The translations under genes were made by a program, and so were the position numbers. A stretch of 62,322 nt of DNA. Origin: an uncultured Ruminococcus sp. (GTDB taxonomy: Bacteria > Bacillota > Clostridia > Oscillospirales > CAG-272). Numbering within the stretch: position 1 is the first letter of the stretch; each line of letters opens with the position of its first letter. This document shows positions 26,797-56,369 of this stretch, one piece after another. Location: the NCBI GenBank assembly GCA_902785485.1, contig CACZZA010000004.1:1-62322 (forward strand). Direction: 5' to 3'. A model generated the notes under the pieces. That model saw only the letters and a program-made list of their open reading frames with translations. It was not told the DNA's origin and ran no database searches.

Positions 26797-26816
26797 TCCG
26801 TCGCTCCCGACGGATC
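26795..26816 (+). promoter_or_regulatory. intra-operon stem-loop straddling the SBP stop codon (no U-tract)
   Basis: GATCCGTCG-CTCC-CGACGGATC, a 9-bp perfect stem whose first two bases are the last two bases of the TGA stop at 26794-26796. Its position is typical of mRNA-stabilising hairpins after binding-protein genes. Confidence 0.4.
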
Positions 26817-26887
26817 CCGACCGTTCAACAAGCGCTGCTCACAAAACGCAGATGCTCAACACATTCTGAAAAAGGAGTTGATAACAA

Positions 26888-27844: not shown

Positions 27845-27845
27845 T

Positions 27846-28721
27846 ATGGCAAGAAAGTTAAGAACAAGAAAGCATCGCGTCGTTCTCAACCGCTCGCGCG
27901 GAGGAGACGTCGGGATAGCGATATTCCTTATCCTCATGGGAGCGTTCCTGTTCCTGCCTATGCTTTACACTATCCTTCAGTCACTGAAGCCTCTTGACGA
28001 GCTATGGATGTTCCCGCCCCGGTTCTACGTTATCAGCCCCACGCTCAAAAACTTCAAAGACCTCTATATGCTGATGAGCGACTCGTGGGTCCCGTTCTCG
28101 AGATACATCTTCAACACGGTGTTCATCTCGGTCGCGGGCACCGTCGGAAACCTGCTCTTCTCGTCCATGTGCGCGTACGCTCTGGCGAAGATCAAGTTCC
28201 CCGGCTCGAAAGGCATATTCAAGCTCATAGTCGCGTCCCTTATGTTCCATACCACGGTCTCGGCTATCGCTAACTACATAACGCTTTCGACTCTGCGCTG
28301 GATCGACACTTATCTCGCGATAATCATTCCCGCGTGGGGGTCGACCCTCGGACTCTACCTGATGAAACAGTTCATGGAGAGCAGCGTCAACAACGCGGTC
28401 CTCGAATCCGCGAGAATAGACGGCGCGGGCGAGTGGAGAACGTTCTGGACGATAGCGATGCCCATGGTCAAGCCGGCGTGGCTGACCCTGATCGTTTACT
28501 CGTTCCAGCACCTGTGGAACGCAGGAACGTCGATCTACATCCAATCCGAACAGCTCAAGAGTTTCAACTACGCGGTCACACAGCTCGTCAACGACGGTAT
28601 CTCCCGTCAGGGAGCGTCCGCGGCATCGACGGTCATCATGATGATGGTCCCGATCCTCGTATTCGTGATCACGCAGAGCAACATCATCGAAACGATGGGC
28701 TCCTCCGGTATGAAAGACTGA
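27846..28721 (+). CDS. ABC transporter permease (MalG/CUT1 type)
   Basis: ESARIDGAGEWRTFWTIAMPMVKP EAA-loop motif. Starts 2 nt after the previous stop. Confidence 0.9.
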   Translation: MARKLRTRKHRVVLNRSRGGDVGIAIFLILMGAFLFLPMLYTILQSLKPLDELWMFPPRFYVISPTLKNFKDLYMLMSDSWVPFSRYIFNTVFISVAGTVGNLLFSSMCAYALAKIKFPGSKGIFKLIVASLMFHTTVSAIANYITLSTLRWIDTYLAIIIPAWGSTLGLYLMKQFMESSVNNAVLESARIDGAGEWRTFWTIAMPMVKPAWLTLIVYSFQHLWNAGTSIYIQSEQLKSFNYAVTQLVNDGISRQGASAASTVIMMMVPILVFVITQSNIIETMGSSGMKD

Positions 28722-28731
28722 GGAGGGCGGC

Positions 28732-30864: not shown

Positions 30865-30880
30865 AAAGGAGAGATTTGAT

Positions 30881-33874
30881 ATGAAAAGAATTTTTTCCGC
30901 GATCCTTGCGCTCATCCTGACGCTCGGACTTTTTGCAAATCTCTCTCTCGGCGCCTCCGCCACTACGACGGCGAGCGACTTTGACTATCTGACGTCCTCC
31001 TTCCGCAACGCGGACGCGAAGATCGCCACGATGGAAAAGTACATAGAAAACGACAAATACGAATTCTACGTAGAGAATACCTCCGGCGAGTTTGCGGTCA
31101 AAAACAAACTCACGGGACAAACGTTCTTATCCAACCCCTACGACGTCGCCAAATCCGGCGCGAGCGACGAGATGAAGCAGGAGCTTCTTTCTCAGGTCCT
31201 CATCAAATACACCGATTCCGGCGTGGATAAGGCGTACAACAGCTTCAAAGACTGTGTCAAACTCAATCAGATAAAGGTCAAACACCTGAAGAACGGCGTT
31301 CGCGTCGAGTATACGATAGGCAACGAGGAAACGAGAAAGCTCGTCCCGATGCAGATCTCGCAGGAGCGTTTCGAGTCCGTTATTTACCAATACGTCGAAG
31401 AGGGAAGCACCTTTGCGGCGGACCGACTCAAAGTTCTGTACGACCTTAAAGACATCAACGACCCGACCCTCACGGTCAAGGGCAAGCAGGAGCTTGTAAA
31501 CAAGTATCCGATAGTCGAACAGTTCCCGATCTACGTCTTCGCGACCGACGCGAAGGATCAGGAGATCATCCGCGCGGAGACCTGGATCAAGACCTACTGT
31601 CCGCAGTACTCCTTCGAGGACCTCGAATACGACTACGAGATCGTCGGCTACGAGGCTCAGAACAAAGCTCCCGCGGTATTCAAGCTCGCTCTTGAATACA
31701 CCCTCGACGAGAACGGATTTTCGATGAGATTCGGCGCGAACGGTCTCCGTTTCGACGAATCGAACTTCACCCTCAAAGAGATCGCGGTCCTGCCGTACGC
31801 GGGCGCCGGCACCTCGTCCAACTCCGGCTACCTCTTCGTTCCGGACGGCTCCGGTACGATAATGAGATTTGAAGACATCACGTCTTCGGTCGTCGTCAGC
31901 GGCAAGATGTACGGTCAGGATTACGCGTATCACAAGATCACCGGTACGACCGAAAAACAGGTGACGATGCCCGTTTACGGTCTTGCTCAGGCGATCAACG
32001 AGACCACGATGGATCCCGAGACCGGAAACGTCGTGTCTAAACCGGTATGGGGCGGCTACTTCGCGATAATCGAGGAAGGCGACACGCTCGTCAACGTGCG
32101 CGCGGAGACCGGCGGCACCGTACACCCGTACAACACCATTTACACGGTATTCAATCCGAGACCGAGCGACACTTACAGCATCAACGACGCCGTTTCATCC
32201 GGCACCGCGGAGTGGACGGTCGTTTCGGACAGAAAATACACCGGCAATTTCAAGCTGAAATACTATCTGCTCGAAGACAGTGAAAAAGCGGCGAACGGCG
32301 GAAGCGAAAAGACCTACGAAGCGTCTTACGTCGGAATGGCGAAAGCCTACCGCGACTACCTCACCGAAAAAGGCGTCCTCACTCCCCTCGCGAACGTAAA
32401 GGACGACGTTCCGCTCTACCTCGAGTCCTTCGGCACGGTAGACACTCAGGAAAAGGTCCTGTCCTTCCCGGTCACCGAGGAAACCCCGCTTACGACCTTT
32501 GAAGATCTGAAAACGATGACGGGCGAGCTTCGCGAAGGCGGCGTACGCAACATCAACCTCAGACTCACGGGATTCGTGAACGGCGGACTTTACTCCCTGC
32601 CTCCCACCAAAGCCGATTTCCAGAGCGAGGTCGGCGGCGACTCGGGCTTCAAGGAATTCACTCAGTACGCCAAGGACAACAATATCGGCGTTTACACCGA
32701 TTTCGATTTCGTGTTCCTGCACAACACCGGATGGTTCGACGGATTCAGCTATTCAAATAACGCCGTCAAGACCATCGACGGACGTTACACGCAGAGACAG
32801 CAGTATTATTCCGACATCCAGTCGCTCGGCGCGAACGGCGAAGTCGTAATGTCGGTATCTTCTCTCAAAGATTTTTACCTGAAGGTCAAAGAAGACCTTG
32901 AAGAACTCGGAGCCACCGGCATCTCGGCGGCAACGCTCGGCAAGTACCTCAACTCCGACTTCAATACCGACGCCCCGTACAACCGCGAAGACGCGAGATA
33001 CGAGACGGCGAAGGTACTCGGACTTATGAAACAGGACTTCGGCGGAGTCATGACGGACGCGGGCAACGCGTACACCTGGCAGTACGCCGACCACATCCTG
33101 AACGTAGCGCTCGATTCGAGCCGCTTCATCAACACGAGCCAGGCGATCCCGTTCGTGGGAATGGTCCTCCACGGCTCGGTAGAATTCGCGGGCGAGCCGC
33201 TCAACACCGCGGGCGACATCGACTACGAGATCCTCAAGATGATCGAAAACGGCGCGTCGCCGTACTTCAAGCTCTCCTACCGCAACGCGGAGAAGCTGAA
33301 GGAGGATATGGCGCTCTCGCAGTATTACTCGGTAAGATACGACATCTGGAAGGAAGACCTTATCAAGTATTACAATGAGATCAACGAAGCGCTGAAGGAC
33401 GTACAGACCGCCACGATCGAAAACCACGAATTCGTCGAAGCGTCGCGTATCCCCGGCGAACTGGAAAAGAAAGAAGACGAGGAAGCGCTCGCCGAAGCGA
33501 CCGAAAAGAACGAGACCGAGAAGCGCCGCACCGAAGAAAAGGAACGCCGCGCGGCTCTGCTCGAAGAAAAACTCGCCGCAAGGGAACTCCTGAACAATCC
33601 TCCGGAAACGAACGCGGACGGAGAGGAGACCACCCAAGCGACCGAGACCACTCAAACGACTGAAACCACAGAAACGGCAGAAGAACCCACCGAGGAAACT
33701 CCCGCCGAGGAGGAAGAGCTGATCGACCTCACCACAAAGTATCTCACCCAGACCGGAACGGTCGTCAAGGTGACCTACTCGAACGGTAAGACCTTCATCC
33801 TCAACTACAACAACTTCGACATAACTTGCGACGGAGTTGAAGTTCCCTCACTCGGGTTCAAGGTCGTAAAGTAA
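30881..33874 (+). CDS. large secreted protein (997 aa), DUF5696-like, with an acidic low-complexity region near the C-terminus
   Basis: Signal peptide MKRIFSAILALILTLGLFANLSLGASA. Long globular body. Glu/Lys- then Thr/Glu-rich stretch (...EETTQATETTQTTETTETAEEPTEETPAEEEE...). The DUF5696 assignment is from memory of similar loci and was not verified. Confidence 0.6.
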   Translation: MKRIFSAILALILTLGLFANLSLGASATTTASDFDYLTSSFRNADAKIATMEKYIENDKYEFYVENTSGEFAVKNKLTGQTFLSNPYDVAKSGASDEMKQELLSQVLIKYTDSGVDKAYNSFKDCVKLNQIKVKHLKNGVRVEYTIGNEETRKLVPMQISQERFESVIYQYVEEGSTFAADRLKVLYDLKDINDPTLTVKGKQELVNKYPIVEQFPIYVFATDAKDQEIIRAETWIKTYCPQYSFEDLEYDYEIVGYEAQNKAPAVFKLALEYTLDENGFSMRFGANGLRFDESNFTLKEIAVLPYAGAGTSSNSGYLFVPDGSGTIMRFEDITSSVVVSGKMYGQDYAYHKITGTTEKQVTMPVYGLAQAINETTMDPETGNVVSKPVWGGYFAIIEEGDTLVNVRAETGGTVHPYNTIYTVFNPRPSDTYSINDAVSSGTAEWTVVSDRKYTGNFKLKYYLLEDSEKAANGGSEKTYEASYVGMAKAYRDYLTEKGVLTPLANVKDDVPLYLESFGTVDTQEKVLSFPVTEETPLTTFEDLKTMTGELREGGVRNINLRLTGFVNGGLYSLPPTKADFQSEVGGDSGFKEFTQYAKDNNIGVYTDFDFVFLHNTGWFDGFSYSNNAVKTIDGRYTQRQQYYSDIQSLGANGEVVMSVSSLKDFYLKVKEDLEELGATGISAATLGKYLNSDFNTDAPYNREDARYETAKVLGLMKQDFGGVMTDAGNAYTWQYADHILNVALDSSRFINTSQAIPFVGMVLHGSVEFAGEPLNTAGDIDYEILKMIENGASPYFKLSYRNAEKLKEDMALSQYYSVRYDIWKEDLIKYYNEINEALKDVQTATIENHEFVEASRIPGELEKKEDEEALAEATEKNETEKRRTEEKERRAALLEEKLAARELLNNPPETNADGEETTQATETTQTTETTETAEEPTEETPAEEEELIDLTTKYLTQTGTVVKVTYSNGKTFILNYNNFDITCDGVEVPSLGFKVVK

Positions 33875-35965: not shown

Positions 35966-36000
35966 AAAAATGGCTGTGTGGTGACACACAGCCATTTTTG
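35966..36000 (+). terminator. intrinsic terminator of the ABC locus
   Basis: AAAAATGGCTGTGTG-GTGA-CACACAGCCATTTTT perfect hairpin with a T-run. Confidence 0.85.
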
Positions 36001-36012
36001 GGTTTGGCGCTT

Positions 36013-36200
36013 GGTCTCGCGGCGATGACCACTGGAGAGAGGAAGAACAAAGTTCAGTTGCAATTTGCGCTTCGTCCGACTGCAAACGCTCGACGTACAC
36101 AAAGTACGCCTTCGGTTTGCACTCGAACGATCCTCATCCACGATACCGAAGCGCGTGGCGATCCTTCGCGGGTCGGGTTACCCGCCGTTGGTGAACGAAA
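36013..36200. repeat. R1-family structured intergenic repeat, copy A (candidate ncRNA or structured DNA element)
   Basis: Shares conserved blocks with 62036-62230: GGTCTCGCGGCGATGACC; GTTCAGTNGCAATTTGCGCTTCGTCCG; CTCGACGTACA-AAAGTACGCCTTCGG; CGAACGATCCTCATCCACGATACC; GGCGATCC. Two helices differ in sequence between the copies but stay complementary. Confidence 0.8.
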
Positions 36201-36314
36201 GTTTTCTTACAAAAACAAGGCGTATACTTTTATGCCGTGTTATTGCTGCAAAGGAGTGAAACAATTATTAGCGTGTATTTGAAACCTATGCGAGAGATAT
36301 TTAACTCACGATGA

Positions 36315-37070
36315 TTATTTCAGAACCGTATCCTTATACGGATTTTGTGCAAAGCCAAAATCAGTCATATTTAGCGGGATATTTTTATACTTGAAAAAGG
36401 CGTCAAAGAATATGGTCAGTTGCTGAGCAAAGTTACAAGCGTCTTTACAATGCTCATCCAAGAAAAAACTTATACTCTTTCCAGTGTCGGAATAATTAGA
36501 GTAACTGAAAGAAGATGTTGAATACAGGTTTTTTGTGTTAAAGGTTCCATATACCTTATGAGTGGCCGGAGCAAGGTAATTAGTATAAATGTAAACGTAT
36601 GAATAGTTATTAAGTATTACTCCGTCTTCTACTGAAAATCCGAAACTTTTTGTTGCTCCATCGACGGTGTGAATGACAAGAAAGGCGATCGTTCCGCTTG
36701 TCGAAGTGAAAGTTGGACAGATACTCCACTCTCCGTTTTTTACAGAATCCTTATAACTATACAAAAATTCATCGGGAGGCAGATGACAGCTTTCTATAAA
36801 ATCCTTAACATTATATGTTGCCGAATATACGCCGCTTTCATAATAATCTGCGTTTTTTCTGATTTCTTCAGCAAATGCGATCAGTTTTGCAGGAATGGGT
36901 TGAGTTTCGGTTTCACCGCAGGAGCATTTTCTTATTGAGCTTCCCCCTTCCGTAAGCGTGGGTTCTTTTTGAGTTTTCCATTCGGAAAAACTGTGTACGT
37001 GTTCCGATCCGCAAGCTGAAAAAGAAAGCAGCAAGCTTAATAGAATAATAATTGAGACAAAACGTTTCAT
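36315..37070 (-). CDS. hypothetical lipoprotein (AT-rich islet)
   Basis: MKRFVSIIILLSLLLSFSAC lipoprotein signal. Codon usage is much more AT-rich than in the flanking genes. Confidence 0.65.
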   Translation of the reverse strand: MKRFVSIIILLSLLLSFSACGSEHVHSFSEWKTQKEPTLTEGGSSIRKCSCGETETQPIPAKLIAFAEEIRKNADYYESGVYSATYNVKDFIESCHLPPDEFLYSYKDSVKNGEWSICPTFTSTSGTIAFLVIHTVDGATKSFGFSVEDGVILNNYSYVYIYTNYLAPATHKVYGTFNTKNLYSTSSFSYSNYSDTGKSISFFLDEHCKDACNFAQQLTIFFDAFFKYKNIPLNMTDFGFAQNPYKDTVLK

Positions 37071-37120
37071 TGGATATTTCTCCTTTTTGTTTTTGTGCTT
37101 CTTGAAAGAACCAATAGTTG

Positions 37121-37447
37121 TTATTGAGTAGTAACAAAACTGCTTGTCAAAGAAACGGCGGCTGATACAAGCGGAACAACGATTTGATTTATTTTGTTGT
37201 AAAAGTCGCCTCTACTCCATTCTTCGAACTTGACAACATCTATTATGATGTATTCGTCTGTCGGCTTATCTTTTTTAACGTCATCGCCGACGATACCGCA
37301 GCTCATAAGAGCTGAAATAAGACAAATGTATCTGTTTTTGTCGATCTTATAGTTCGTCCAATCGGTTTTACATCTGTTATTGATGTTTTTAATTATAGCA
37401 CGAATATTGTTGGTATCGGTGTTCTTTCTCGGAATACAAGGTTTCAT
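37121..37447 (-). CDS. hypothetical small protein with C-terminal TM helix (AT-rich islet)
   Basis: ORF 37121..37621, trimmed to the ATG at 37447, which follows GGGAGGG. No family recognised. Confidence 0.45.
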   Translation of the reverse strand: MKPCIPRKNTDTNNIRAIIKNINNRCKTDWTNYKIDKNRYICLISALMSCGIVGDDVKKDKPTDEYIIIDVVKFEEWSRGDFYNKINQIVVPLVSAAVSLTSSFVTTQ

Positions 37448-37783
37448 TAACATCCCTCCCTTCCCGAAAAATAAAAAAGTGCGCCAACCGAAGTCAACGC
37501 ACCGAAAAACGCAAACCCCGATTGTCGCCAAACAAATTTCAAGCAATAGACGTGGGATGTCCACACTAAAACCAGCGGAATTTGCGTTTTTACCGTATTC
37601 AACTGATTTCAGCGTGCGCAAAAAAGGGCAAAAATATCCCTTAAAGACAAAAATACCCCACTCTACGCTCTATGAAATTTGTTTGGCATAGTTAGAATAA
37701 CATATTTTATTGTTTTTGTCAACTGAACATAGAATAAAGATTTTTTTTATTGTTTTTTTAATCGTAAAACGGAAGAAAAAATA

Positions 37784-37813
37784 TTGACACGGGGGTTATT
37801 GTTGTGTTATAAT
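37784..37813 (+). promoter_or_regulatory. promoter of the pyr operon
   Basis: TTGACA, 18 nt spacer, TATAAT, with a TG at the extended -10 position. Confidence 0.65.
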
Positions 37814-37820
37814 CATAAAA

Positions 37821-37880
37821 ATAGATCGAGAGAGCTTTTGCCGACATTCTGACCTTGTTTGAAACAAGGTCGGTTTTTTG
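37821..37880 (+). promoter_or_regulatory. PyrR-type transcription attenuator (binding-loop-like motif plus terminator)
   Basis: GAUCGAGAGAGCUU resembles the PyrR binding-loop consensus ARUCCAGAGAGGCU. It is followed by the GACCTTGTTT-G-AAACAAGGTC hairpin (37851-37871) and a T6 run, 38 nt before the pyrC ATG. Confidence 0.6.
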
Positions 37881-37917
37881 AGAGGGCAAAGGTTTTATCC
37901 TGCGGAAAGGTAAACAG

Positions 37918-39183
37918 ATGAAAAGTTCGTTCACTCTGAAAAACGGATACGTATTCGACGCCGGAAAGGTCAAAAAGGGCGACGTATTTATCGACGGCGA
38001 GGTGTTCGCCGCGGGTGATATTTCCCCCGAGTTTTCCTCCGCCGATCATTCCGATATTTCCGGTCTTTATATATTACCCGGTTTTACTGACGTGCACGTC
38101 CACTTCAGAGAGCCGGGTTTTTCTTATAAAGAGACGATAAAAACGGGGAGCATGGCGGCGGCGCGCGGCGGATACCGGCGCGTCTGCACGATGCCGAACC
38201 TGGATCCCGTGCCTGACACGCTCGGGCATCTAAAAACGCAGCTCGACATAATAGAGCGCGACGGCGCGATAGAGGTCGTCCCGTTCGGCTCGATCACTCG
38301 GGGCGAAAAGGGAGACGCGCTCTCCGATATGGAGGCTATGGCTCCCTTCGTCGCGGGATTTTCGGACGACGGACGCGGAGTGCAGTCGCGCGATATGATG
38401 CGCGAAGCGATGCTCAAAGCCAAAGAGCTGGGCAAAGTGATCTCGGCGCACTGCGAGGTCAATTCACTGCTGAACGGCGGATACATCCACGACGGGATCT
38501 ACGCGAAAGAACACGGACACAGAGGAATACCGTCGGAGAGCGAGTGGCGCGAGATCGAACGGGATATAGAGCTCGCTTATGAAACGGGCGTGAAGTATCA
38601 CGTCTGCCACGTCTCGACAAAAGAGAGCATCAGCCTCATCCGCGACGCGAAGAAAAGCGGAGTCGACGTCACCTGCGAGACGGGACCTCACTATCTGCTG
38701 CTCGACGAAACGCATCTGCGCGAGGACGGGCGGTTCAAGATGAATCCGCCTTTACGCGGAGTACGCGACCGCGAGGCGATGATCGAGGCGATGATCGACG
38801 GCACGCTCGACATGATAGCGACCGACCACGCGCCCCACTCGGCGGAGGAAAAGTCGCGCGGGCTTGAAAAGAGCGCGATGGGCGTCGTCGGCATCGAAAC
38901 GGCGTTCCCTCTGATGTACACGGGTTTTGTAAAAAGCGGGATCATAACGCTCGGACGGCTGATGGAGCTTATGTGTTTCGCTCCCTGCCGCCGCTTCGGA
39001 TTTGAATGCGGGATCGGCGCGGGCAAGGACGCGAGCTTCTCGGTCTGGGATCTTGAAAGGGAATATACGGTCGACCCCGGCGAGTTCCTCTCGATGGGCA
39101 AAAGCACTCCTTTTGCGGGCGAGCGGGTCTTTGGTCGGTGCGTCGCAACGTATCATAAAGGCAAAAAAATCTATTCGGATTAA
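37918..39183 (+). CDS. pyrC: dihydroorotase
   Basis: PGFTDVHVHFREPG, ...HCE..., HVCHVST and ATDHAPH motifs. 421 aa. Confidence 0.95.
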   Translation: MKSSFTLKNGYVFDAGKVKKGDVFIDGEVFAAGDISPEFSSADHSDISGLYILPGFTDVHVHFREPGFSYKETIKTGSMAAARGGYRRVCTMPNLDPVPDTLGHLKTQLDIIERDGAIEVVPFGSITRGEKGDALSDMEAMAPFVAGFSDDGRGVQSRDMMREAMLKAKELGKVISAHCEVNSLLNGGYIHDGIYAKEHGHRGIPSESEWREIERDIELAYETGVKYHVCHVSTKESISLIRDAKKSGVDVTCETGPHYLLLDETHLREDGRFKMNPPLRGVRDREAMIEAMIDGTLDMIATDHAPHSAEEKSRGLEKSAMGVVGIETAFPLMYTGFVKSGIITLGRLMELMCFAPCRRFGFECGIGAGKDASFSVWDLEREYTVDPGEFLSMGKSTPFAGERVFGRCVATYHKGKKIYSD

Positions 39184-48399: not shown

Positions 48400-48476
48400 G
48401 GCGGAATAGCTCAGCTGGCTAGAGCATTCGGTTCATACCCGACAGGTCGTTGGTTCAAATCCGACTTCCGCTACCA
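48400..48476 (+). tRNA. tRNA with CAU anticodon (elongator Met, or Ile2 if lysidine-modified)
   Basis: The cloverleaf folds by hand: acceptor GGCGGAA/TTCCGCT, D arm GCTC..GAGC, anticodon loop TTCATAC, T arm GTTGG-TTCAAAT-CCGAC, encoded CCA. Confidence 0.9.
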
Positions 48477-48478
48477 AA

Positions 48479-48553
48479 GGCCCGGTGGTCAAGCGGTTAA
48501 GACACCGCCCTTTCACGGCAGTAACAGGGGTTCGATTCCCCTCCGGGTCACCA
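48479..48553 (+). tRNA. tRNA-Glu (UUC)
   Basis: GGCCCGGTGGTCAAGCGGTTAAGACACCGCCCTTTCACGGC... is nearly identical to canonical Firmicute tRNA-Glu. Anticodon loop CTTTCAC. Encoded CCA. Confidence 0.92.
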
Positions 48554-49107: not shown

Positions 49108-49208
49108 ATCCTAAAACAGTCGGCTGAAAGAGCCGATGAGGCGCGTTCGCGCCGTTGAAAAAAACTGCGTTTTCAGTTTATTTCACTGATTTTTCGGGAG
49201 GGACCGTT

Positions 49209-49982
49209 ATGATCTGCAGATCCTGCGGTATGGAATACGACGACTCTCTGTCGGTTTGTCCGACGTGCGGAGAAAAGGCGGGAGACGCCGAAAATACGCG
49301 CAAAGACAGACTGACTTGGGACGGAGCGGCGCGCGAGAGCGCTTCCGACGCGTTTTCCGAACAGAACGACGCGCGCTCTTTTGACTCGGAGGAAAATAAT
49401 TCCGGCTACCGCGAGGCTCCGCCGTACACAGAGGGACAGAGATACGTTTTCGGTCGACCGGCGTTCACGTCTGTCCTGCCTATGAAATGGCATATTTTTC
49501 TCGTTTATTTCGGTATCTGGGCGGTCTCGTTCGGCTCTTTTTCCGACGGACTTCTCAGCCTTGCCGGCTCGCTCGGCAATTTCACCTCCGACGTGTTCAG
49601 CGCGGCGTCGGCTCAACAGTTTCTGAACAACGGAGAACTCCTTTCTGCGGACGCATTCTACGCGCTCTATCCCGTGATGAAGACGTTTGACGCGGTCTAC
49701 GGGGCGCTTCTCATAGCGCTCGGTATATTCGGAACCGTTACGGGGTTCGCCCTGCTGAAAATGAAAAAGACTGCTCCCAAAATTTTCGTCGCCTTCTGCG
49801 GATGCTATTTCGGGATAAAAATGCTTTACACAGTCGTCGTAACGTACGTCATCCGTGACTCCGGCTCGCGTTTCGGCGCGGACACCGTCCTGTCTCTGGC
49901 TTTTTCCGCCCTTGCTTCGGCGGCTCTGGTCTACGCTAACTACGTTTATTACAAAAAGAGGAAGCATCTGTTCGTCAACTGA
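49209..49982 (+). CDS. zinc-ribbon domain membrane protein (hypothetical)
   Basis: MICRSCGMEYDDSLSVCPTCG (CxxC...CxxC), followed by a disordered linker and four hydrophobic helices. GGGAGGG RBS. Confidence 0.6.
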   Translation: MICRSCGMEYDDSLSVCPTCGEKAGDAENTRKDRLTWDGAARESASDAFSEQNDARSFDSEENNSGYREAPPYTEGQRYVFGRPAFTSVLPMKWHIFLVYFGIWAVSFGSFSDGLLSLAGSLGNFTSDVFSAASAQQFLNNGELLSADAFYALYPVMKTFDAVYGALLIALGIFGTVTGFALLKMKKTAPKIFVAFCGCYFGIKMLYTVVVTYVIRDSGSRFGADTVLSLAFSALASAALVYANYVYYKKRKHLFVN

Positions 49983-49986
49983 GCAT

Positions 49987-50040
49987 AAAAAACCGATCCG
50001 GGATAAAAGGGCTTTCGACTCCTTTATCCCGGATTTTTTT
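49987..50040. terminator. bidirectional terminator between convergent genes
   Basis: ATCCGGGATAAAAGG...CCTTTATCCCGGAT stem flanked by an A-run and a T-run. Confidence 0.8.
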
Positions 50041-50048
50041 GAGAATCT

Positions 50049-51110
50049 TTACAACAACGCGCATTCCGGTTGGAGTGTGCGGGAGGAAAAACCGTTATCT
50101 TCGGTCTTTCCGGGGAACGCGACTGAGTAGAGCGTCGTTCCGAAGCTGATGCTTTTCAGTTTGTCATATATGGGAAAAGCAAAATGGTTCGTCGGGAGTC
50201 CCGCCACGAGCATCCCGTATTTTTTCCCTGCCTCGCGTATCATATTTGCCAGAAAGACGCGGTAGATCTCCTCCGAATCGTCACGGCTGAGCATAAACGA
50301 CAGCATGGGGAACGAAAGCGGGACGTTTTCCTTCGGGAGCTTCACGTATCCGAGCGCTGACAGAAGGGGGTTGAAAACCCTTACCGCCTTCATCGGAGCG
50401 CTGTATCTTTTGACGACGTACTGTTTGTATCCGCTCTGATCCCAGAGCGCACCGGCCGCGGCTATACCGCTTTCGTCGGTGAGGAGCCTGAAATCGTCGA
50501 TTTTTAGCCCGGTGAACCCGTCGAGAGAGTCGATCGCGGGGAACAGATCCTTTTTTCTTCCCTCGGAATTCAGAAAATTCAGGAGCGCCGGCAGGTCTTC
50601 TTCTGTCGCGCCGCGGAATACAAGGCCGGACACAGGAGCCTTTAGCCTGACCTTGGGCGAGATTATGAAAGTCCTGTATTCCGCAAACGGCTTCATCGTC
50701 AGGACGCGGTCGATCCTGTCGAATATCCTTCTCGCCTGCGCGTTTTCCGACACGACCGAGCAGTAATAGAGATCGGCTCCCTCCTGCTTCAGCTCTCTGA
50801 TAAATCCGAGTCCGAGCCCGGAAAGTCCGGAATGCGACGCGTCTTTTTTGAGTCCGCAGATGTAGCAGGTCTTTCGCCGTTCTCCGCCGATATACGCGTC
50901 CCTTATCAGCTCAGCGCAGGTGCCGACGACCCTGCCGTCCGCCCTTGATACGAATACCTTCGCTTCCCCCGGCTCTTTCATATAGGATGCGTAAGCGTCG
51001 GGGCGCCGCGTATACAGGAGCTCGATCTTTCCCTTTGCCGCGGAGCTTTCCAATACTTCAAGGATCGCTTTGCCGTCGTCGGGCGAGGCGACGAATGAAA
51101 GCTCGCTCAT
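50049..51110 (-). CDS. tandem GNAT-fold-like acyl/acetyltransferase (hypothetical, 353 aa)
   Basis: The two halves each have GNAT-like beta-alpha patterning (...CYICGLKKDASHSGLSGLGLGFIRELKQ...). ATGA overlap with the upstream radical SAM gene. Family assignment is tentative. Confidence 0.45.
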   Translation of the reverse strand: MSELSFVASPDDGKAILEVLESSAAKGKIELLYTRRPDAYASYMKEPGEAKVFVSRADGRVVGTCAELIRDAYIGGERRKTCYICGLKKDASHSGLSGLGLGFIRELKQEGADLYYCSVVSENAQARRIFDRIDRVLTMKPFAEYRTFIISPKVRLKAPVSGLVFRGATEEDLPALLNFLNSEGRKKDLFPAIDSLDGFTGLKIDDFRLLTDESGIAAAGALWDQSGYKQYVVKRYSAPMKAVRVFNPLLSALGYVKLPKENVPLSFPMLSFMLSRDDSEEIYRVFLANMIREAGKKYGMLVAGLPTNHFAFPIYDKLKSISFGTTLYSVAFPGKTEDNGFSSRTLQPECALL

Positions 51111-52447
51111 TTCTTGATCTCCTCCAGATTTTCGCCGACGGGGATGCCCGAGCGCCGGTCGACCTCGAAGTGAAAGACGACGTTGACGAACCAGTAGGCA
51201 AAATTGATCAGCGGTCTGTGCGTGCGGCGGAGCAGGGTAAAGCCTCGCCGAAAGATCGAACCGAAGCTGAAATAGTATTTCCGGTACTTTTTGCAGTAGG
51301 CTCTGAGCTCTTCCGGAGTCATTTTTTTAGGCTCGAAGGTGATCTTTCCGAAGGTGTAGCCGTCTTCAAGCCACCATTTTTCGGATATCAGGCGATCCTG
51401 CGCCTTGAATGACGCGTAGGTCTCGGTCCCGGGGAAAATCAGCAGATGATTGAACGCCACGACGAAGAATTTATGCTTTTTGCAGAAATCGAGAGTCGTT
51501 TTGAAGGTCTCCTCGCTGTCGGAGTCAAAGCCGAACACGAAGCTCGCGTAGATGCTGATACCCGCTTTGTGGATCTTTTCTATGAGCTCGTCGCGCTCGC
51601 CGAGCCTTTCCGTCCAGCTCTTGTTCATCTGACGCAGATTGTCGCTTTCGACCGACTCGAAGCCGATCAGCACCATCTCACATCCGCTTTCCTTCATAAG
51701 CTTCAGCATTCTTTCGTCCTTCGCCACGTCGAGGGTGATCTGGGTGGTCCAGATTATGCGCAGTTTTTTCAGCTCGGTGAAAAGCTCTTCCGCGAAACGC
51801 CTGTCGGAAAAAATACTGTCGTCAACGAAGAAAAATATCTTGTGCTCGCAGGTCTTTATCTCGTCGATGATATCCGTGACATCTCTGTGCAGGTAATGCG
51901 AGTGATAGTAGCCCGCGATGGAGCAGAATTCGCAGTTGTGATAGCATCCGCGTCCCGTCTCTACGAGAGATACGGGCAGATATTTTTTCATTTTGCTTTT
52001 GTAGATGCTCCGGTCGGGTCTCTTATAGGCGATGCACGCGCCGCCGTCGTACCTCTTGCGCAGAGTCCCGTTTTCGAGGTCGGAGAGAACGTCTCCCATT
52101 ATCGCGTCCGCGTTGCCCACCATAACGGAGTCGGCGTGTTCTGTTGCCTCGTCGGGACAGAGGGTGACGTGATATCCGCCGAGGATGACCTTTTTACCGC
52201 TGAGCCTAAACCGCTCTGCGATCGCGTAAGCGCGTTTCGCGGTGTATGTTTCGACCGTGATGAACACGGCGTCCGAGTCGGTCCCGTAGTCGATCGGTTC
52301 GATCCTGTCGTCGAAAAATTCACGCTCGATGCTTCCGGGAAGCAGGGAATTAAGCACAGCCACGGTCAACGGCTCCATAAGCCAGGTCTTCAGATATTTC
52401 TGACCGGGCTTTTTCCCGATCGCTGGGAGTATGAACGTGATCTTCAT
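51107..52447 (-). CDS. B12-binding-domain radical SAM protein, paralog C
   Basis: N-terminal B12-binding-like Rossmann region. GRGCYHNCEFC (CxxxCxxC). C-terminal extension similar to DUF4070-type class B radical SAM enzymes. Confidence 0.8.
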   Translation of the reverse strand: MKITFILPAIGKKPGQKYLKTWLMEPLTVAVLNSLLPGSIEREFFDDRIEPIDYGTDSDAVFITVETYTAKRAYAIAERFRLSGKKVILGGYHVTLCPDEATEHADSVMVGNADAIMGDVLSDLENGTLRKRYDGGACIAYKRPDRSIYKSKMKKYLPVSLVETGRGCYHNCEFCSIAGYYHSHYLHRDVTDIIDEIKTCEHKIFFFVDDSIFSDRRFAEELFTELKKLRIIWTTQITLDVAKDERMLKLMKESGCEMVLIGFESVESDNLRQMNKSWTERLGERDELIEKIHKAGISIYASFVFGFDSDSEETFKTTLDFCKKHKFFVVAFNHLLIFPGTETYASFKAQDRLISEKWWLEDGYTFGKITFEPKKMTPEELRAYCKKYRKYYFSFGSIFRRGFTLLRRTHRPLINFAYWFVNVVFHFEVDRRSGIPVGENLEEIKK

Positions 52448-53766
52448 CGCTTTTTCGTACGCTCCTTTCGAAGTGTCTTTTCCGTCTTTTTGTTGTAGAT
52501 CCTGAAGCCTATGTTCACGGCGAGCTTGAGAATACCTCCGCGCCTGTTGCCGACAGTCCTTTTGAAAATGCGTTTAAGCGTGTAGCACTCGTTCGAAACT
52601 TGCGCGAGCAGGTCTTCAAGCTCCGTCCTGCCCATGTTTTTCGGCTCGAAAACTGCGTGAATACTGTCGTAGTCGTTCCAGTCCGTCGAGAATATGCGAC
52701 CTTCGGACTTCAGTTTTTCGAACACCGGGGTATTGGGATACGGCGTCAGTATCGCGAACCGCGGTATATCGACGCCGATCTCCTCTATCAGGTCCGGCAT
52801 CCCGAGGATGCTCTCCCTCGTATCTCCGTCAAAGCCGAGCATAAAGGTGCCGAGGACCGAGACCCCGTTCCCGTGGAATTTTTCCACGGCTTTTTTATAT
52901 TCTTCGACTTTGTTCTTTTTACTGCTTTCCCGCAGGCTTTCCTCGCTGAAGGTCTCGAATCCCATAAGGATCCCGATGCATCCGCTTTCTATCATCAGAC
53001 CGAACAGTTCTGCGTCCTCGCAGACGTCCGTCGTGCAGAGTCCCGCCCATTTTATCCCGAGCGGGATCAGGGCTTTATAGAATTCCGCGGCGTAGGCGCG
53101 GTTCGAGGTGGGCGAGGGATCGAGGAAGAGGATATGCTTCCTTTTCAGCGACTTTATCTCGTTTATAACGTCTTCGATCCTCCGCGCGGTGTGCCTTCCT
53201 CCGCCCCAGAAGGAGTTGATGACGCAGAACGAGCAGTTGTTCGTACATCCGAAGTTTGCGATCACGGTGGGAAAAGGGAGGTATTTGCGCTTTTGCATTA
53301 TCTCCCGCTTCGGTATGACGGGAAAACAGCCGATATCGCAGGGCTTCCCGTCGTATCGCGCCTTCGGCTCGCCTTTTGCGTAGTCGTCGATGAACTGTCG
53401 CCAGACGCGGTCGGCGGGACCCGTCAGCACGGTGTCCGCGTGCAGGGCGGCCTCGTCGGGCAAAAGTGTGACGTGGTGCCCTCCCATCACGGTATAGCTG
53501 CCTCTTTTGCGGAAAAAGTCGACGATCTCGTATCCGCGTTTGACGGATGAGGTGACCGAGGTCACGGCGACGACGTCGTAATGCTCAAAAGACTCATAGT
53601 CGGCTTCCGTAACGCCCTCGTCGACCGCTTTGAACTCCGCGCCGTATCTTTCGGGAGTCAAAGCGGCAAGATAGGGCATCGTGAGCGGCATATAACTCAG
53701 AGATCTCGTGAACGCGCTTCTGCACCGGTAATTGTTATCGTACGGAGTCACGAACAGTATCTTCAT
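52444..53766 (-). CDS. B12-binding-domain radical SAM protein, paralog B
   Basis: FGCTNNCSFC cluster motif. Same architecture as paralogs A and C. GGAGG RBS lies inside the 3' end of the upstream gene. Confidence 0.8.
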   Translation of the reverse strand: MKILFVTPYDNNYRCRSAFTRSLSYMPLTMPYLAALTPERYGAEFKAVDEGVTEADYESFEHYDVVAVTSVTSSVKRGYEIVDFFRKRGSYTVMGGHHVTLLPDEAALHADTVLTGPADRVWRQFIDDYAKGEPKARYDGKPCDIGCFPVIPKREIMQKRKYLPFPTVIANFGCTNNCSFCVINSFWGGGRHTARRIEDVINEIKSLKRKHILFLDPSPTSNRAYAAEFYKALIPLGIKWAGLCTTDVCEDAELFGLMIESGCIGILMGFETFSEESLRESSKKNKVEEYKKAVEKFHGNGVSVLGTFMLGFDGDTRESILGMPDLIEEIGVDIPRFAILTPYPNTPVFEKLKSEGRIFSTDWNDYDSIHAVFEPKNMGRTELEDLLAQVSNECYTLKRIFKRTVGNRRGGILKLAVNIGFRIYNKKTEKTLRKERTKKR

Positions 53767-55105
53767 TTTTGACCTCCGGGATGTCGGAGTTGTCGGACAT
53801 CACGTCGCTTCCGTATATTTCAAACGATCTCGCGTATTTTCTGTAGCCCGCGTTTACAAGCGCGTACACGCTTTTCAGCGTCCTGACCCTTTTAAGGTCG
53901 AGCCTCTTGAAGATGTTCTTTACCGTGTACGCTTCCTTCCACGCCCACGCGGTACCCTTTTCAAGCTCCTCCTTCGTCATCTGCTTCGGCTTGAACACGC
54001 AGTGCTCCACGTCGTACATCGCGAAATCTCTTTCGATTATTCGCCCTTCGCTCTCGAGCTCCCGGTAGAAGTCGGTGTTCGGGAAGGGAGTTATGATCGA
54101 AAAGCGCGGGAGGTCGATCTTCGCTTTTACGCATAGCTCGACGGTACGCCGGAAAACGTCCGGTCCGTCCCCGTCCGCGCCGAAGGCGAAGCATCCCATC
54201 ACCATTATCCCCTGCCTGTGGAGCTTGTCCATCAGAGCGACGTATGTGTCGACGCGGTTCACTCCTTTACGGATATCCTTTTGAGTTTCCTGATTCACCG
54301 ACTCGAAGCCTATCAGCAGACCCTTGCACCCGCTTTTTCTGAACAGCTCAAGCAGCTCGTCGCTTTTGCCGATCGCGGTGGTGGTAAGTCCGAACCACCA
54401 TTTTTTCAGCGGGATCATGGCGGTGAACAGTTCTTTCGCGTAATTCACGTCCGCGATGAGGTTCACGTCGGGGAAAATGACCTCCTTGCCCTTGAAGCTC
54501 TTTATCTCGGCAATAACGTCGCCGACGGGTCGCGTGATGACGCGCTTTCCGAACGCGGCGGGATAGGCGCAGAACGTGCAGGAATGGTTGCACCCGCGCA
54601 CTGCCTCGACGGTATTGAGCGTTATGTATTTCTTTTTGTTCAGCAGATCCTTCCTGGGCAGGGGTCTGTTGGCTATGTCGGCGCAACCGCCGCCGTCGTA
54701 CCTCTTTTTGAGACACCCGTCTCTTACGTCGAGAAGCGCCTGCGGAAAGCTCTTCTCTCCGAGCCCGGTCAGAACGGCGTCAGCGTGGGCGGCGGCTTCC
54801 TCCGGCATAAGCGAGGGATGTACCCCTCCGAGGAGTACGGTCTTTCCCTTTGAACGGAAGTAGTCCGCATAGCGGTAGCATCTCGACGAAGTTCCCGTGA
54901 TGCAGGTGATCGCGATGACGTCCGCGTCGCAGTCGAGCGGGATCGCCTCCGCGGTCTCGTCATAGATGACGACCTCGGCGTTCAGCTCCTTCGGAACGAG
55001 AGCGGCGAGCAGGGCGAGGGTTATCGGGGCGTAGTGAAGTCCCTTGTGGAACATACCGTTGTATCTGTGCATCGCGCCCGCCGGTGAGATCAGAGCTATT
55101 TTCAT
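53735..55105 (-). CDS. B12-binding-domain radical SAM protein, paralog A
   Basis: RGCNHSCTFC cluster motif. N-terminal B12-binding-like domain. 456 aa. Confidence 0.8.
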   Translation of the reverse strand: MKIALISPAGAMHRYNGMFHKGLHYAPITLALLAALVPKELNAEVVIYDETAEAIPLDCDADVIAITCITGTSSRCYRYADYFRSKGKTVLLGGVHPSLMPEEAAAHADAVLTGLGEKSFPQALLDVRDGCLKKRYDGGGCADIANRPLPRKDLLNKKKYITLNTVEAVRGCNHSCTFCAYPAAFGKRVITRPVGDVIAEIKSFKGKEVIFPDVNLIADVNYAKELFTAMIPLKKWWFGLTTTAIGKSDELLELFRKSGCKGLLIGFESVNQETQKDIRKGVNRVDTYVALMDKLHRQGIMVMGCFAFGADGDGPDVFRRTVELCVKAKIDLPRFSIITPFPNTDFYRELESEGRIIERDFAMYDVEHCVFKPKQMTKEELEKGTAWAWKEAYTVKNIFKRLDLKRVRTLKSVYALVNAGYRKYARSFEIYGSDVMSDNSDIPEVKNEDTVRDSVR

Positions 55106-55122
55106 CGGTTTTTCCCTTTCAT

Positions 55123-56271
55123 TCAGTCGATCGGTATAAATGAAGATACCGCCATAAGGATCATCCCAATTCCGACGGACAGCGCGATATAACGGGGTGT
55201 ATTACCCCTGCCCGTCAGCAGTTTTTCGGACGGGGAACGCGCGGCGTCGAGAAAGGCGGGAAGTACGGCGGACATCAGTATAAGAGACAGGACTCCCGCG
55301 CCGATCTGGAGCAGATCGGTGACGGATACAGGCAGGAACGCGGCGCAGACGACCGCCGGCAGAGTCGAGGCTAACCACGCGGCGTATCCCTTTACACGGA
55401 CGGTTTTGCGAATGACGTCCGAAAACGCGAACCCGCTTGAGAGGAAAGACGAAAACATCGCCGCGAGCACGAGAACGGTGCAGACGAGCTCCACCGCGCG
55501 GCTTCCCACCGAGAGGGCGAGCCCCGTAGTCGCTACCGGCGTCACGTTTTCGGAGCCTTTCAGAGCCGATAAAATGAAAACGACCGTCAGAACGGCGTTG
55601 AGACTCAGACCTCCCGCCACGGCTTTTCCGGTCTTTTCCCGGTCTTTGATATACACGCAGACCTGCATGACCGAAAAGATCGCGGAGAACGCGAACATGA
55701 ACAGCCCGTAAACGGCGAACACTTTTCCGGGATCACCGAACGAGAAAGATACGGCGCCTTTCGGACGGAAAAGCGACAGGACCGTAAGAAAGACTACCGC
55801 CGCTCCGATCAAAGAGACGGACAGCGTTTCTCCCGTCCCGAGTCCTCTTACGCCGAACGCGGCGGCAAGCGAACAGACGGTGAAGAAAACGGCGCACGCG
55901 AATGGGATCCCGACCGAAAACGTATCGGAGATCACCTGCGCGGCGCAGAGGGTGTATACGGCTAAATTTTCGACAAGGAGCAGACACATCAGAACGTAAA
56001 AAACGGTCCTCAGGACCCTCCTCTTTCCGGATTTGAAAAGGTGCTCGTCAAGTATCGCGGAGAGATCCTCGGATGATTCGGAGTTCCTGCACAGATCCGC
56101 TATGACGAAATACAGCCCGAGGCTCACGGTGTAAGCGAGCCCGAGAGCAACGAGCGTTCCGAACAATCCGATCTTCGACACGGCATAGGGCAGCGTGAGG
56201 AGTCCGGTCCCCATACCCGCTCCGGCGACAAGCAGGACGGATTCTGTCAAACTCAGTTTTTTGTTTTTCAT
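55123..56271 (-). CDS. amino-acid permease, hydroxy/aromatic amino acid permease (HAAAP, Trp/Tyr/Ser-type)-like
   Basis: The N-terminus SLTESVLLVAGAGMGTGLLTLPYAVSKIG matches the AGxxIGAGMLxxP pattern of TyrP/Mtr/TnaB/SdaC-type carriers. About 11 TM helices. Confidence 0.6.
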   Translation of the reverse strand: MKNKKLSLTESVLLVAGAGMGTGLLTLPYAVSKIGLFGTLVALGLAYTVSLGLYFVIADLCRNSESSEDLSAILDEHLFKSGKRRVLRTVFYVLMCLLLVENLAVYTLCAAQVISDTFSVGIPFACAVFFTVCSLAAAFGVRGLGTGETLSVSLIGAAVVFLTVLSLFRPKGAVSFSFGDPGKVFAVYGLFMFAFSAIFSVMQVCVYIKDREKTGKAVAGGLSLNAVLTVVFILSALKGSENVTPVATTGLALSVGSRAVELVCTVLVLAAMFSSFLSSGFAFSDVIRKTVRVKGYAAWLASTLPAVVCAAFLPVSVTDLLQIGAGVLSLILMSAVLPAFLDAARSPSEKLLTGRGNTPRYIALSVGIGMILMAVSSFIPID

Positions 56272-56340: not shown

Positions 56341-56369
56341 ATTATATCATTAAAATATGAATAAATCAA
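56341..56369 (-). promoter_or_regulatory. promoter of the permease/radical SAM/GNAT operon
   Basis: Minus strand reads TTGATT, 17 nt spacer, TATAAT. The -10 lies within the palindrome ATGATA-N8-TATCAT (56331-56350), a possible operator. Confidence 0.55.

Follow-up and report, generated by a model that had tools for sequence, protein, structure and literature searches.

A five-gene operon with its own promoter and terminator

We analyzed a stretch of 62,322 nt of contig CACZZA010000004.1 from an uncultured Ruminococcus sp. (hereafter the window), with a focus on a cassette of five minus-strand genes that encode a predicted permease, three radical S-adenosylmethionine (radical SAM) enzymes and a tandem-GNAT protein (Table 1). 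An earlier reading of the same DNA from its letters only (the sequence-only reading) had described these genes as one co-transcribed operon, and we compared the cassette over approximately 60 related loci. All five open reading frames (ORFs) were found in the window, together with the tight junctions previously described between them. Adjacent genes overlap by 4 nt at 52444-52447 and at 51107-51110 and by 32 nt at 53735-53766, and the permease gene is separated from its neighbour by 17 nt (55106-55122). The orthologues retain the start codons and resemble the window in the overlap between the first two radical SAM genes.

The hairpin that follows the last gene has a stem of 14 bp or more, with a folding energy (dG) of -22.4 kcal/mol and a z-score of -3.3. 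Since an A-run precedes the hairpin, this terminator is probably bidirectional and common to the convergent gene at 49155-49982. An extended -10 promoter at the start, a hairpin terminator at the end and overlapping genes in between show the five genes to be organized as a single predicted transcription unit, in agreement with the sequence-only reading. Moreover, more than 40 independent genomes share this gene order, which is hence not due to chance. The near-consensus promoter with its -10 box inside a palindrome is also present as previously described, but the palindrome is not conserved upstream of the orthologous operons. We therefore rejected it as a conserved operator, the repeat being specific to the window locus. 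Most orthologous operons have similarly strong sigma-A promoters and short leaders, and the search for an Rfam riboswitch or T-box ahead of the operon was negative for the window and for 10 related loci.

Table 1. Genes and regulatory features of the operon in the window
Feature	Position	Strand	Description
Permease, 382 aa	55123-56271	minus	First operon gene
rSAM-A (rA, orthogroup OG1), 456 aa	53735-55105	minus	Motif CNHSCTFC; core enzyme
rSAM-B (rB, orthogroup OG2), 440 aa	52444-53766	minus	Motif CTNNCSFC; accessory enzyme
rSAM-C (rC, orthogroup OG4), 446 aa	51107-52447	minus	Motif CYHNCEFC; core enzyme
Tandem-GNAT protein, 353 aa	50049-51110	minus	Last operon gene; predicted N-acyltransferase
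Promoter, sigma-70-type	56341-56369	minus	-35 TTGATT at 56369-56364; 17-nt spacer; TG-extended -10 TATAAT at 56346-56341
Inverted repeat ATGATA..TATCAT	56350-56331		Encloses the promoter -10
Intrinsic terminator	49987-50034	minus	Hairpin at 50034-49996, followed by a U-run at 49995-49987

The operon belongs to a family of cassettes with a conserved core

We scanned one genome per GTDB species, which returned 47 loci, and typed all ORFs in these loci against references. In every long contig from close gut homologues that we examined, the permease is the first gene and the tandem GNAT the last, with the B12-domain radical SAM enzymes lying between them, while each genome has its own, unrelated genes on the flanks. 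The recurrence of the same cassette amid unrelated flanks indicates that the gene set is tightly co-inherited and that the radical SAM genes are not scattered in relatives, and none of the refuting conditions named in the sequence-only reading holds. Also when neighbouring ORFs were clustered without bias, the tandem GNAT was found to co-occur only with radical SAM enzymes, the permease, a GH3 protein and a 234-aa protein, the last two in a distant set of loci.

At least five radical SAM orthogroups (OG1 to OG5), plus a divergent OG2', are distributed across the cassettes. OG1 and OG4, which correspond to rA and rC in the window, occur in every complete cassette with radical SAM genes, and OG2 (rB), OG2', OG3 and OG5 are accessory. 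Across the loci compared, OG1, OG4 and the tandem GNAT thus show themselves as the invariant core of the predicted cassette. The three radical SAM genes in a row, on which the sequence-only reading had built its proposal, turned out to be a lineage-specific sample of these orthogroups, of which only rA and rC are core. Relatives hold between two and five radical SAM genes, and two loci hold none. The minimal form, composed of permease, OG1, OG4 and GNAT without OG2, was found in six loci (L026, L028, L031, L033, L039 and L041). The window type, which adds OG2, is present in 10; OG2 and OG3 are added in four, OG3 and OG5 in another four that have no OG2, and OG2', OG3 and OG5 in three. Among the related loci compared, the form of the window is confined to uncultured Clostridia of the gut and rumen.

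In the two loci without any radical SAM gene, which derive from metagenome-assembled genomes (MAGs) of rumen Clostridia/Ruminococcus, permease and tandem GNAT adjoin each other (969-3322 in L034 and 73-2594 in L036). The next genes in L034 encode an ADP-ribosylglycohydrolase-like protein, a homologue of NimA-type nitroimidazole reductases and an FMN reductase.

OG4 lies directly upstream of the tandem GNAT in all complete loci, and in the window the start/stop overlap of rC with the tandem-GNAT gene makes the two translationally coupled. In addition, the two functions are naturally fused. In the 817-aa protein P0388 a B12-domain radical SAM enzyme, OG4-like in its sequence, is joined to a tandem GNAT. 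Likewise, two sediment metagenome contigs (72-5308 in L059 and 19-3755 in L060) carry an OG4-tandem-GNAT fusion gene followed by a small GNAT and then by GH3, which is a third layout of the cassette as judged by gene order; in L059, an OG5 gene is convergent with the fusion-led cassette. Because of adjacency, start/stop overlap and natural fusions, the tandem GNAT shows itself as the committed partner of OG4, with which it is predicted to be coupled both physically and functionally.

An exhaustive profile search returned 2,107 clusters of the tandem-GNAT family at 50% identity, 1,325 of which with E <= 1e-10. Four further fusions join an ATP-grasp ligase to the tandem GNAT, and therefore the family repeatedly partners with ATP-dependent carboxylate-amine ligases. 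ATP-grasp-tandem-GNAT fusions of approximately 720 aa occur at 3078-12175 in L056 and 10001-18149 in L058, in a conserved block with genes for a CDP-alcohol phosphatidyltransferase, a CarS-like CTP-transferase and a PPDK-like protein, with a UbiA prenyltransferase in L056 only. The two fusion proteins are 37-39% identical, and one family member is labelled Candidatus Saccharibacteria. This context suggests a lipid head-group role for the ATP-grasp-fused branch of the family.

No curated family in Pfam, NCBIfam or PADLOC fits the gene set, which bears out the earlier statement that it matches no characterised pathway. We found no description of the cassette in the literature, including a 2026 review of B12-dependent radical SAM enzymes and publications on GH3, N-acyl amino acids, aminolipids, Fusobacterium and N-acetyltransferases. 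A defence system was also considered and rejected, as PADLOC returned only 19-38 bits for two of the radical SAM enzymes against the candidate model PDC-M51A and nothing for the other proteins.

Permease and GH3 occupy the same slot in different lineages

The permease is of the APC-fold amino-acid type, with HAAAP/Trp_Tyr_perm as its best family. It is a borderline member, since PF03222 matches residues 6-344 of its 382 with 28.4 bits against a cut-off of 22, and it falls outside the characterised aromatic amino acid subfamily TIGR00837 (25 bits against a cut-off of 350). The match to the spore-germination permease TIGR00912 is equally weak. The permease is present in 32 related loci and is approximately 55% identical to its orthologues.

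A second form of the cassette (type II) has no permease and carries instead GH3 and a 234-aa small GNAT directly upstream of OG1. Its hosts are Peptoclostridium litorale DSM 5388, Alkaliphilus serpentinus LacT, Fusobacterium sp., several Firmicutes MAGs and termite-gut MAGs, and the sediment lineages likewise hold GH3 and the small GNAT in place of the permease. Gene order across the loci shows the permease on one side and GH3 with the small GNAT on the other as mutually exclusive occupants of one slot. The tandem GNAT of type II is 23-33% identical to that of the window. The radical SAM orthogroups are shared at 50-70% identity and hence predate the split between the two types. Judged from gene content, the window operon is a derived, permease-bearing and reduced host-associated version of a widespread, modular ancestral cassette of strict anaerobes that carries GH3.

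The GH3 proteins of the related cassettes belong to the acyl-acid amido synthetase family PF03321. Their only NCBIfam match is OlsH (NF052613), at 51-54 bits against a cut-off of 620, which makes them relatives rather than orthologues of this enzyme. The AlphaFold2 model of the 234-aa protein (pLDDT 92) consists of a single GNAT domain with an extension of approximately 100 aa, and its closest folds are AAC(2')-Ia, the N-domain of Eis and arylalkylamine N-acetyltransferases. A sequence-profile search of the PDB returned nothing significant for this protein, and neither did its profile-profile comparison with the tandem GNAT. Its family has no curated model. A solitary 234-aa small GNAT, from a cluster of 560 member sequences, lies at 10001-10699 in L054 with no radical SAM or GH3 gene nearby. 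Its neighbours there are genes of glycine/betaine reductase (GrdB, Gly_reductase and GrdX) and BCCT and SNF transporter genes.

The radical SAM enzymes are old paralogues with a predicted class B architecture

All three radical SAM translations contain the CxxxCxxC motif (RGCNHSCTFC in rA, FGCTNNCSFC in rB and GRGCYHNCEFC in rC) and match PF04055 Radical_SAM with 67-78 bits against a cut-off of 29.5 (67 bits for rA). Their domain order, composed of an N-terminal Rossmann-type domain followed by the radical SAM core, matches that of class B and shows that this is their predicted architecture. The sequence-only reading had assigned to each of them an N-terminal cobalamin-binding-like domain in addition to the motif. 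The motif was indeed detected in each, but the B12-binding domain PF02310 exceeds the gathering score of 32.1 only in rA (36.6 bits), with 24.5 bits in rB and 21.7 bits in rC. The three enzymes are only 32-38% identical to one another and are therefore old paralogues rather than recent duplicates, as already proposed. Each of them is much closer to its own orthologues in other genomes: rA shares 82-86% identity with those of the gut and approximately 60% with those of type II, rB 73-74% and rC 75-77%.

Methylation and rearrangement at unactivated carbons, which are carried out by class B radical SAM enzymes, are among the hardest reactions in biology, and for most of the family no function is known. 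We compared the three enzymes with the class B equivalogs in NCBIfam (2026), namely HpnJ, BchE, PhpK, AprD4, the ladderane-type TIGR04072, HpnR, BzaD, TsrM, KedN5 and MgmA. None of these models was reached, as the best matches score 92-103 bits against cut-offs of 360-775. HpnJ and BchE account for these best sub-threshold matches, and TIGR04072 follows at 86 bits. PhpK is among the top sub-threshold matches of all three enzymes (70-78 bits against a cut-off of 600), and the AprD4 model NF033070 scores 72 bits against a cut-off of 500.

The solved structure closest to the window enzymes is AprD4 (PDB 6FD2), with 62 bits over residues 67-381 of rA and 44 bits for rB. MgmA (9CCB), the methyl-coenzyme M reductase (MCR) glutamine C-methyltransferase, is the second closest to rA and rB, and CysS and TsrM are more distant. 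AprD4 binds no cobalamin and acts as a diol dehydratase on an aminoglycoside (PMC12931638). With a cobalamin-free diol dehydratase as the closest solved homologue, the methyltransferase-type chemistry of the sequence-only reading is an assumption, and we rejected the outright label of methyltransferases for the three enzymes.

The last gene encodes a tandem GNAT of a family without its own model

No significant Pfam match was found for the 353-aa protein, whose family has no Pfam or NCBIfam model of its own, and the family profile returned nothing significant among PDB sequences. The tandem-GNAT fold that had been suggested for this protein is nevertheless borne out by structure prediction. 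The AlphaFold2 model, built with 27 homologues, has a pLDDT of 83 and a pTM of 0.86, and Foldseek comparison of this model with the PDB returned two-domain GNATs with probability 1.00, E-values between 1e-9 and 1e-11 and TM-scores of 0.5-0.64. The best matches are the Eis-like 3N7Z and 2I00, MAB_4324 of M. abscessus, the glucosamine N-acetyltransferase of C. acetobutylicum and N-myristoyltransferases (NMT), and all of the top 50 are tandem GNATs or GNATs. At the sequence level, a weak match to PF13527 is seen in 26 of the 27 members of the family (the window protein scores 15 bits, the cut-off being 25), and a weak match to AAC(6') was seen in the NCBIfam search. Homologues with approximately 55% identity come from uncultured Clostridia/Oscillospiraceae of animal gut and rumen, and all of them are annotated as hypothetical.

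Near and distant members share the invariant residues D12, Y33, R35, Y83, G86, N123, Y255 and P259 and the motif KQYVVKxY. Gut members have a glycine-rich loop of the GGVGFG type after beta-4 of the N-domain. All members terminate at the same alignment column. Eis and NMT use a buried C-terminal carboxylate, and the fixed end of the family would be compatible with a carboxylate of this type, by analogy and not as proof. We rejected membership in the Eis family, defined as proteins of approximately 400 aa with the three domains GNAT-GNAT-SCP2 and a sequence-level match, because the window protein has 353 aa, two domains, no SCP2-like third domain and a PF13527 score under threshold.

A putative pathway towards modified N-acyl amino acids

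The sequence-only reading had proposed the modification of an imported amino acid with N-acylation, or the production of a lipid head group, and this is still the best reading that we can infer. To the operon being a self-contained small-molecule tailoring pathway that yields a modified N-acyl amino acid or a small amide we give about an even chance. In such a pathway, the permease would import an amino acid or an amino-acid amide conjugate, while other lineages would rely on GH3 and the small GNAT to make the substrate. N-acylation of the substrate by the tandem GNAT would follow, with acyl coenzyme A (acyl-CoA) or an acylated acyl carrier protein (ACP) as donor. As two loci hold only permease and GNAT, this acylation of what is imported would need no radical SAM enzyme. 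The radical SAM enzymes would subsequently alter unactivated carbons of the N-acylated substrate, although this order of reactions is a guess. OG4 would act together with the tandem GNAT, the other core step would fall to OG1, and OG2 would add a decoration that is optional. C-methylation would be the most likely chemistry, and an AprD4- or HpnJ-type dehydration or rearrangement is another possibility. The product, a modified N-acyl amino acid or small amide, could be either a soluble metabolite or a lipoamino acid, and the accessory radical SAM content would set a decoration pattern that differs between species.

Several observations weigh against this pathway. Its product, reaction order and use of cobalamin are unproven. 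By analogy with AprD4, which as the closest solved homologue binds no cobalamin, B12-dependent methylation may be wrong. The CoA-binding loop Q/RxxGxG/A is not conserved in several distant members of the tandem-GNAT family (for example in L047 and L048), so the use of acyl-CoA by this protein is likewise unproven. The step of the tandem GNAT is not simply equal to that of GH3, because type II cassettes hold GH3, the small GNAT and the tandem GNAT together, and the replacement of synthesis by import is read from gene position only. The permease is itself weakly assigned (28 bits), and the transporter could export the product. Finally, OG1 and OG4 are 75-90% identical between genomes in which the GNAT and the permease share approximately 55%. 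Such conservation is unusual for the tailoring of secondary metabolites, and the substrate could be a conserved macromolecule.

This conservation is what would be expected if the enzymes acted on a protein or on a ribosomally synthesized and post-translationally modified peptide (RiPP) encoded elsewhere, with the radical SAM enzymes introducing C-methyl groups or crosslinks and the GNAT acylating the N-terminus in the manner of NMT. PoyB/C, the bottromycin methyltransferases, Mmp10 and MgmA are class B enzymes that act on peptides or proteins, MgmA being also the second-closest solved structure; the tandem GNAT is NMT-like in its fold, and a radical SAM-SPASM gene lies just downstream of the cassette in L002 and L003. 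We nevertheless consider this explanation very unlikely. No conserved small ORF is detectable in the cassette or within 1.2 kb of it in approximately 48 loci, in line with the earlier remark that no precursor is encoded locally, and the reading was demoted because all candidates of this screen are out-of-frame shadows of the radical SAM genes. A precursor encoded farther away is still conceivable. Neither Pfam searches of the window proteins nor the clustering of neighbouring ORFs revealed a RiPP recognition element (RRE) or a peptidase domain, and no ABC exporter is present. The SPASM gene is limited to one lineage, and the conserved partners are all of the small-molecule type (permease, GH3 amido synthetase and a small GNAT similar to aminoglycoside or arylalkylamine acetyltransferases). 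A role in detoxification or resistance, in which the permease would move a toxic amine or amino-acid analogue, the GNAT would N-acetylate it and the radical SAM enzymes would degrade or neutralize it further, would fit the Eis-type and aminoglycoside acetyltransferases among the closest structural relatives, the weak AAC(6') match, and the two loci with permease and GNAT alone, one of which (L034) adjoins nitroimidazole-reductase-like and FMN-reductase genes. However, two to five costly radical enzymes of the Fe-S/B12 type have no precedent in such a role, the partnership with ATP-dependent amide ligases (GH3 and ATP-grasp) points to synthesis, and the cassette encodes neither sensor nor regulator behind promoters that seem constitutive. 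Detoxification is thus highly improbable.

The remaining two alternatives keep a biosynthetic role for the cassette. A membrane aminolipid or head-group pathway, in which the GNAT would add a long acyl chain to the imported amino acid, like NMT or with the function of OlsB, and the radical SAM enzymes would methylate or rearrange the tail or head group and so adjust membrane properties, with a decoration that varies between species through the accessory enzymes, is a specific sub-case of the N-acyl amino acid pathway with a lipid product. Combinatorial accessory methylases such as HpnP and HpnR are typical of lipid tailoring, and the hopanoid and ladderane-lipid enzymes HpnJ, TIGR04072 and HpnR are the top sub-threshold matches of the radical SAM enzymes, although at scores so far under the cut-offs that they indicate generic class B similarity. 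Prominent among the structural neighbours of the tandem GNAT are N-myristoyltransferases, and in two distant genomes the ATP-grasp fusions adjoin genes for a CDP-alcohol phosphatidyltransferase and CarS-like, UbiA and PPDK-like proteins, but the GNATs with these lipid-related neighbours form a remote branch of their family. The only NCBIfam match of the associated GH3 is a lyso-ornithine-lipid synthetase, OlsH (PMC12493201), with just 54 of the 620 bits needed. Since genes for an O-acyltransferase, for ACP or for fatty-acid or glycerolipid enzymes are absent from all type I (permease-bearing) and type II cassettes, no membrane anchor is predicted for any of the enzymes and aminolipids are unreported in Bacillota according to a 2026 review (PMC12971839), we regard a membrane lipid as an unlikely product. 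The pathway could also be the same except for a GNAT that depends on aminoacyl-tRNA, as in enzymes of the Fem, MprF or L/F-transferase type, and that adds an amino acid to give a pseudo-dipeptide. Fem, MprF and L/F-transferases do have a tandem-GNAT fold, the canonical CoA-binding loop is not kept in all family members and the family partners with other ligases of the peptide-bond type. However, the 50 top Foldseek matches are all acyl-CoA-dependent enzymes and include no transferase of these three kinds, and members match PF13527 rather than the FemAB or DUF2156 models, which makes a tRNA-dependent step quite unlikely.

Comparison with the closest known systems

PhpK is a class B radical SAM P-methyltransferase that acts on N-acetyl-demethylphosphinothricin, and thus provides a precedent for N-acylation before the radical SAM step. 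In the phosphinothricin pair, formed by a Pat/Bar-type GNAT and PhpK/BcpD, the amino acid is N-acylated by the GNAT and the N-acylated compound is then modified by a B12-domain radical SAM enzyme, as proposed for the cassette. The two systems differ in that the cassette enzymes score far under the 600-bit cut-off, no phosphonate genes are present, a 353-aa tandem GNAT accompanies two to five radical SAM enzymes instead of one, and the hosts are gut anaerobes rather than actinomycetes. A second combination of a radical SAM enzyme with a GNAT is AblA/AblB of methanogens, which turns a free amino acid into N-epsilon-acetyl-beta-lysine, an N-acetylated amino acid with a modified skeleton. AblA is a lysine 2,3-aminomutase-type enzyme without a B12 domain and AblB is a single GNAT, and as a system the pair is not homologous to the cassette.

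Clusters with several class B enzymes are known from thienamycin (ThnK/ThnL/ThnP), bottromycin (BotRMT1-3), BchQ/BchR and HpnP/HpnR. They resemble the cassette in having several diverged paralogues per pathway, each of which performs a distinct modification at an unactivated carbon and alters the decoration by its presence. The cassette enzymes stay under the curated thresholds of all these families, are accompanied by wholly different partner genes and come from strict anaerobes of gut, rumen and sediment. AprD4, which performs the C3' deoxygenation in apramycin, resembles rA and rB in having a Rossmann-like domain on the N-terminal side of the radical SAM core; neither an AprD3-type reductase nor an aminoglycoside gene is found in the cassette.

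Among known tandem GNATs, Eis, MshD, the C. acetobutylicum glucosamine N-acetyltransferase, MAB_4324 and NMT have the same two-domain fold as the window protein (TM-scores of 0.5-0.64), but their sequence identity to it is just 10-14%. Moreover, the window protein differs from them in its own invariant KQYVVKxY motif and in its genetic coupling to radical SAM enzymes. OlsH of Singulisphaera acidiphila is a bacterial GH3 enzyme whose product, N-acyl-ornithine, is formed from ornithine and a fatty acid with ATP (PMC12493201). The similarity of the OlsH/OlsI ornithine-lipid pathway to the cassette lies in GH3, which is integral to the ancestral type II form and has OlsH as its sole NCBIfam match. 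In the window operon there is no GH3, and the permease takes its place; furthermore, OlsG is absent, no OlsI-type alpha/beta-hydrolase or OlsA-type gene occurs in any cassette, and the Ols pathway is itself devoid of radical SAM enzymes. Overall, the cassette is built from known kinds of enzymes, and as a set it has no described counterpart.

Genomic surroundings of the cassettes

In the window, the cassette sits between a tRNA pair and an rnf operon. The sequence-only reading had speculated that rnf could supply ferredoxin to the radical SAM enzymes. The rnf operon is present, but it adjoins the cassette in only one other of approximately 47 loci, in a different arrangement and orientation, and the link could not be upheld. 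The tRNA-Met(CAT)/tRNA-Glu(TTC) pair is found at 48400-48553, 1.5 kb beyond the 3' end of the cassette, and only a 275-aa zinc-ribbon membrane protein without Pfam match (49155-49982) is encoded between the two. Genes for tRNAs are common integration sites for mobile DNA.

Two further regions of the window stand apart from the cassette. A block of low GC content at 36000-38000 (0.39, compared to approximately 0.55 elsewhere in the window) contains two ORFs without Pfam match, which encode a lipoprotein-like protein of 251 aa (36315-37070, minus strand) and a protein of 166 aa (37121-37621, minus strand). This block, which has an ABC sugar-transport region on one side and a gene similar to dihydroorotase on the other, may have been acquired by horizontal transfer. 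Two very large proteins are encoded at 23809-33874, one of 995 aa with SBP_bac_1 as its C-terminal solute-binding domain and one of 997 aa that belongs to DUF5696. They flank ABC permease-like genes, and the region looks like an unusual carbohydrate-uptake locus.

Mobile and regulatory elements are also found next to related cassettes. A group II intron lies after the cassette of Peptoclostridium litorale (11825-13378 in L042). In Alkaliphilus serpentinus, a GGDEF gene approximately 1 kb downstream is preceded by a c-di-GMP-I riboswitch (12134-12219 in L047), and a MatE efflux gene comes next. MatE homologues lie near the cassette in four loci. After the cassette in L002 (11089-15461), and also in L003, there are genes for a radical SAM-SPASM protein of 458 aa and an unannotated protein of 334 aa, an ORF of 66 aa and a large serine recombinase. 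This block is either an extra maturase set or an inserted mobile element.

Implications for anaerobic metabolism

These analyses define a compact, portable and widespread cassette, in which five class B orthogroups occur in combinatorial arrangements and a radical SAM enzyme is naturally fused to a GNAT. Two of the partner families in the cassette, the tandem GNAT and the 234-aa GNAT, have no curated model. Natural cassettes with zero, two, three, four and five radical SAM genes, together with the cultured hosts of type II, would allow individual enzyme steps to be assigned by comparative metabolomics.

It is possible, although on balance doubtful, that the cassettes make a new class of metabolites in strict anaerobes. 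These would be N-acyl amino acids, small amino-acid amides or lipoamino acids, with a carbon skeleton that up to five radical SAM enzymes rebuild and with the tandem GNAT as obligate partner of one of these enzymes, fused to it in some lineages. In gut lineages, uptake of the precursor from the surroundings would have taken the place of its synthesis by GH3 and the small GNAT, and the product would be a cross-fed one that depends on the community. If this is true, the hosts of such metabolites would include abundant uncultured Oscillospiraceae of the gut and rumen as well as Fusobacterium. If the exchange of GH3 for the permease also has the meaning proposed here, a gut lineage would outsource a biosynthetic precursor to its community.

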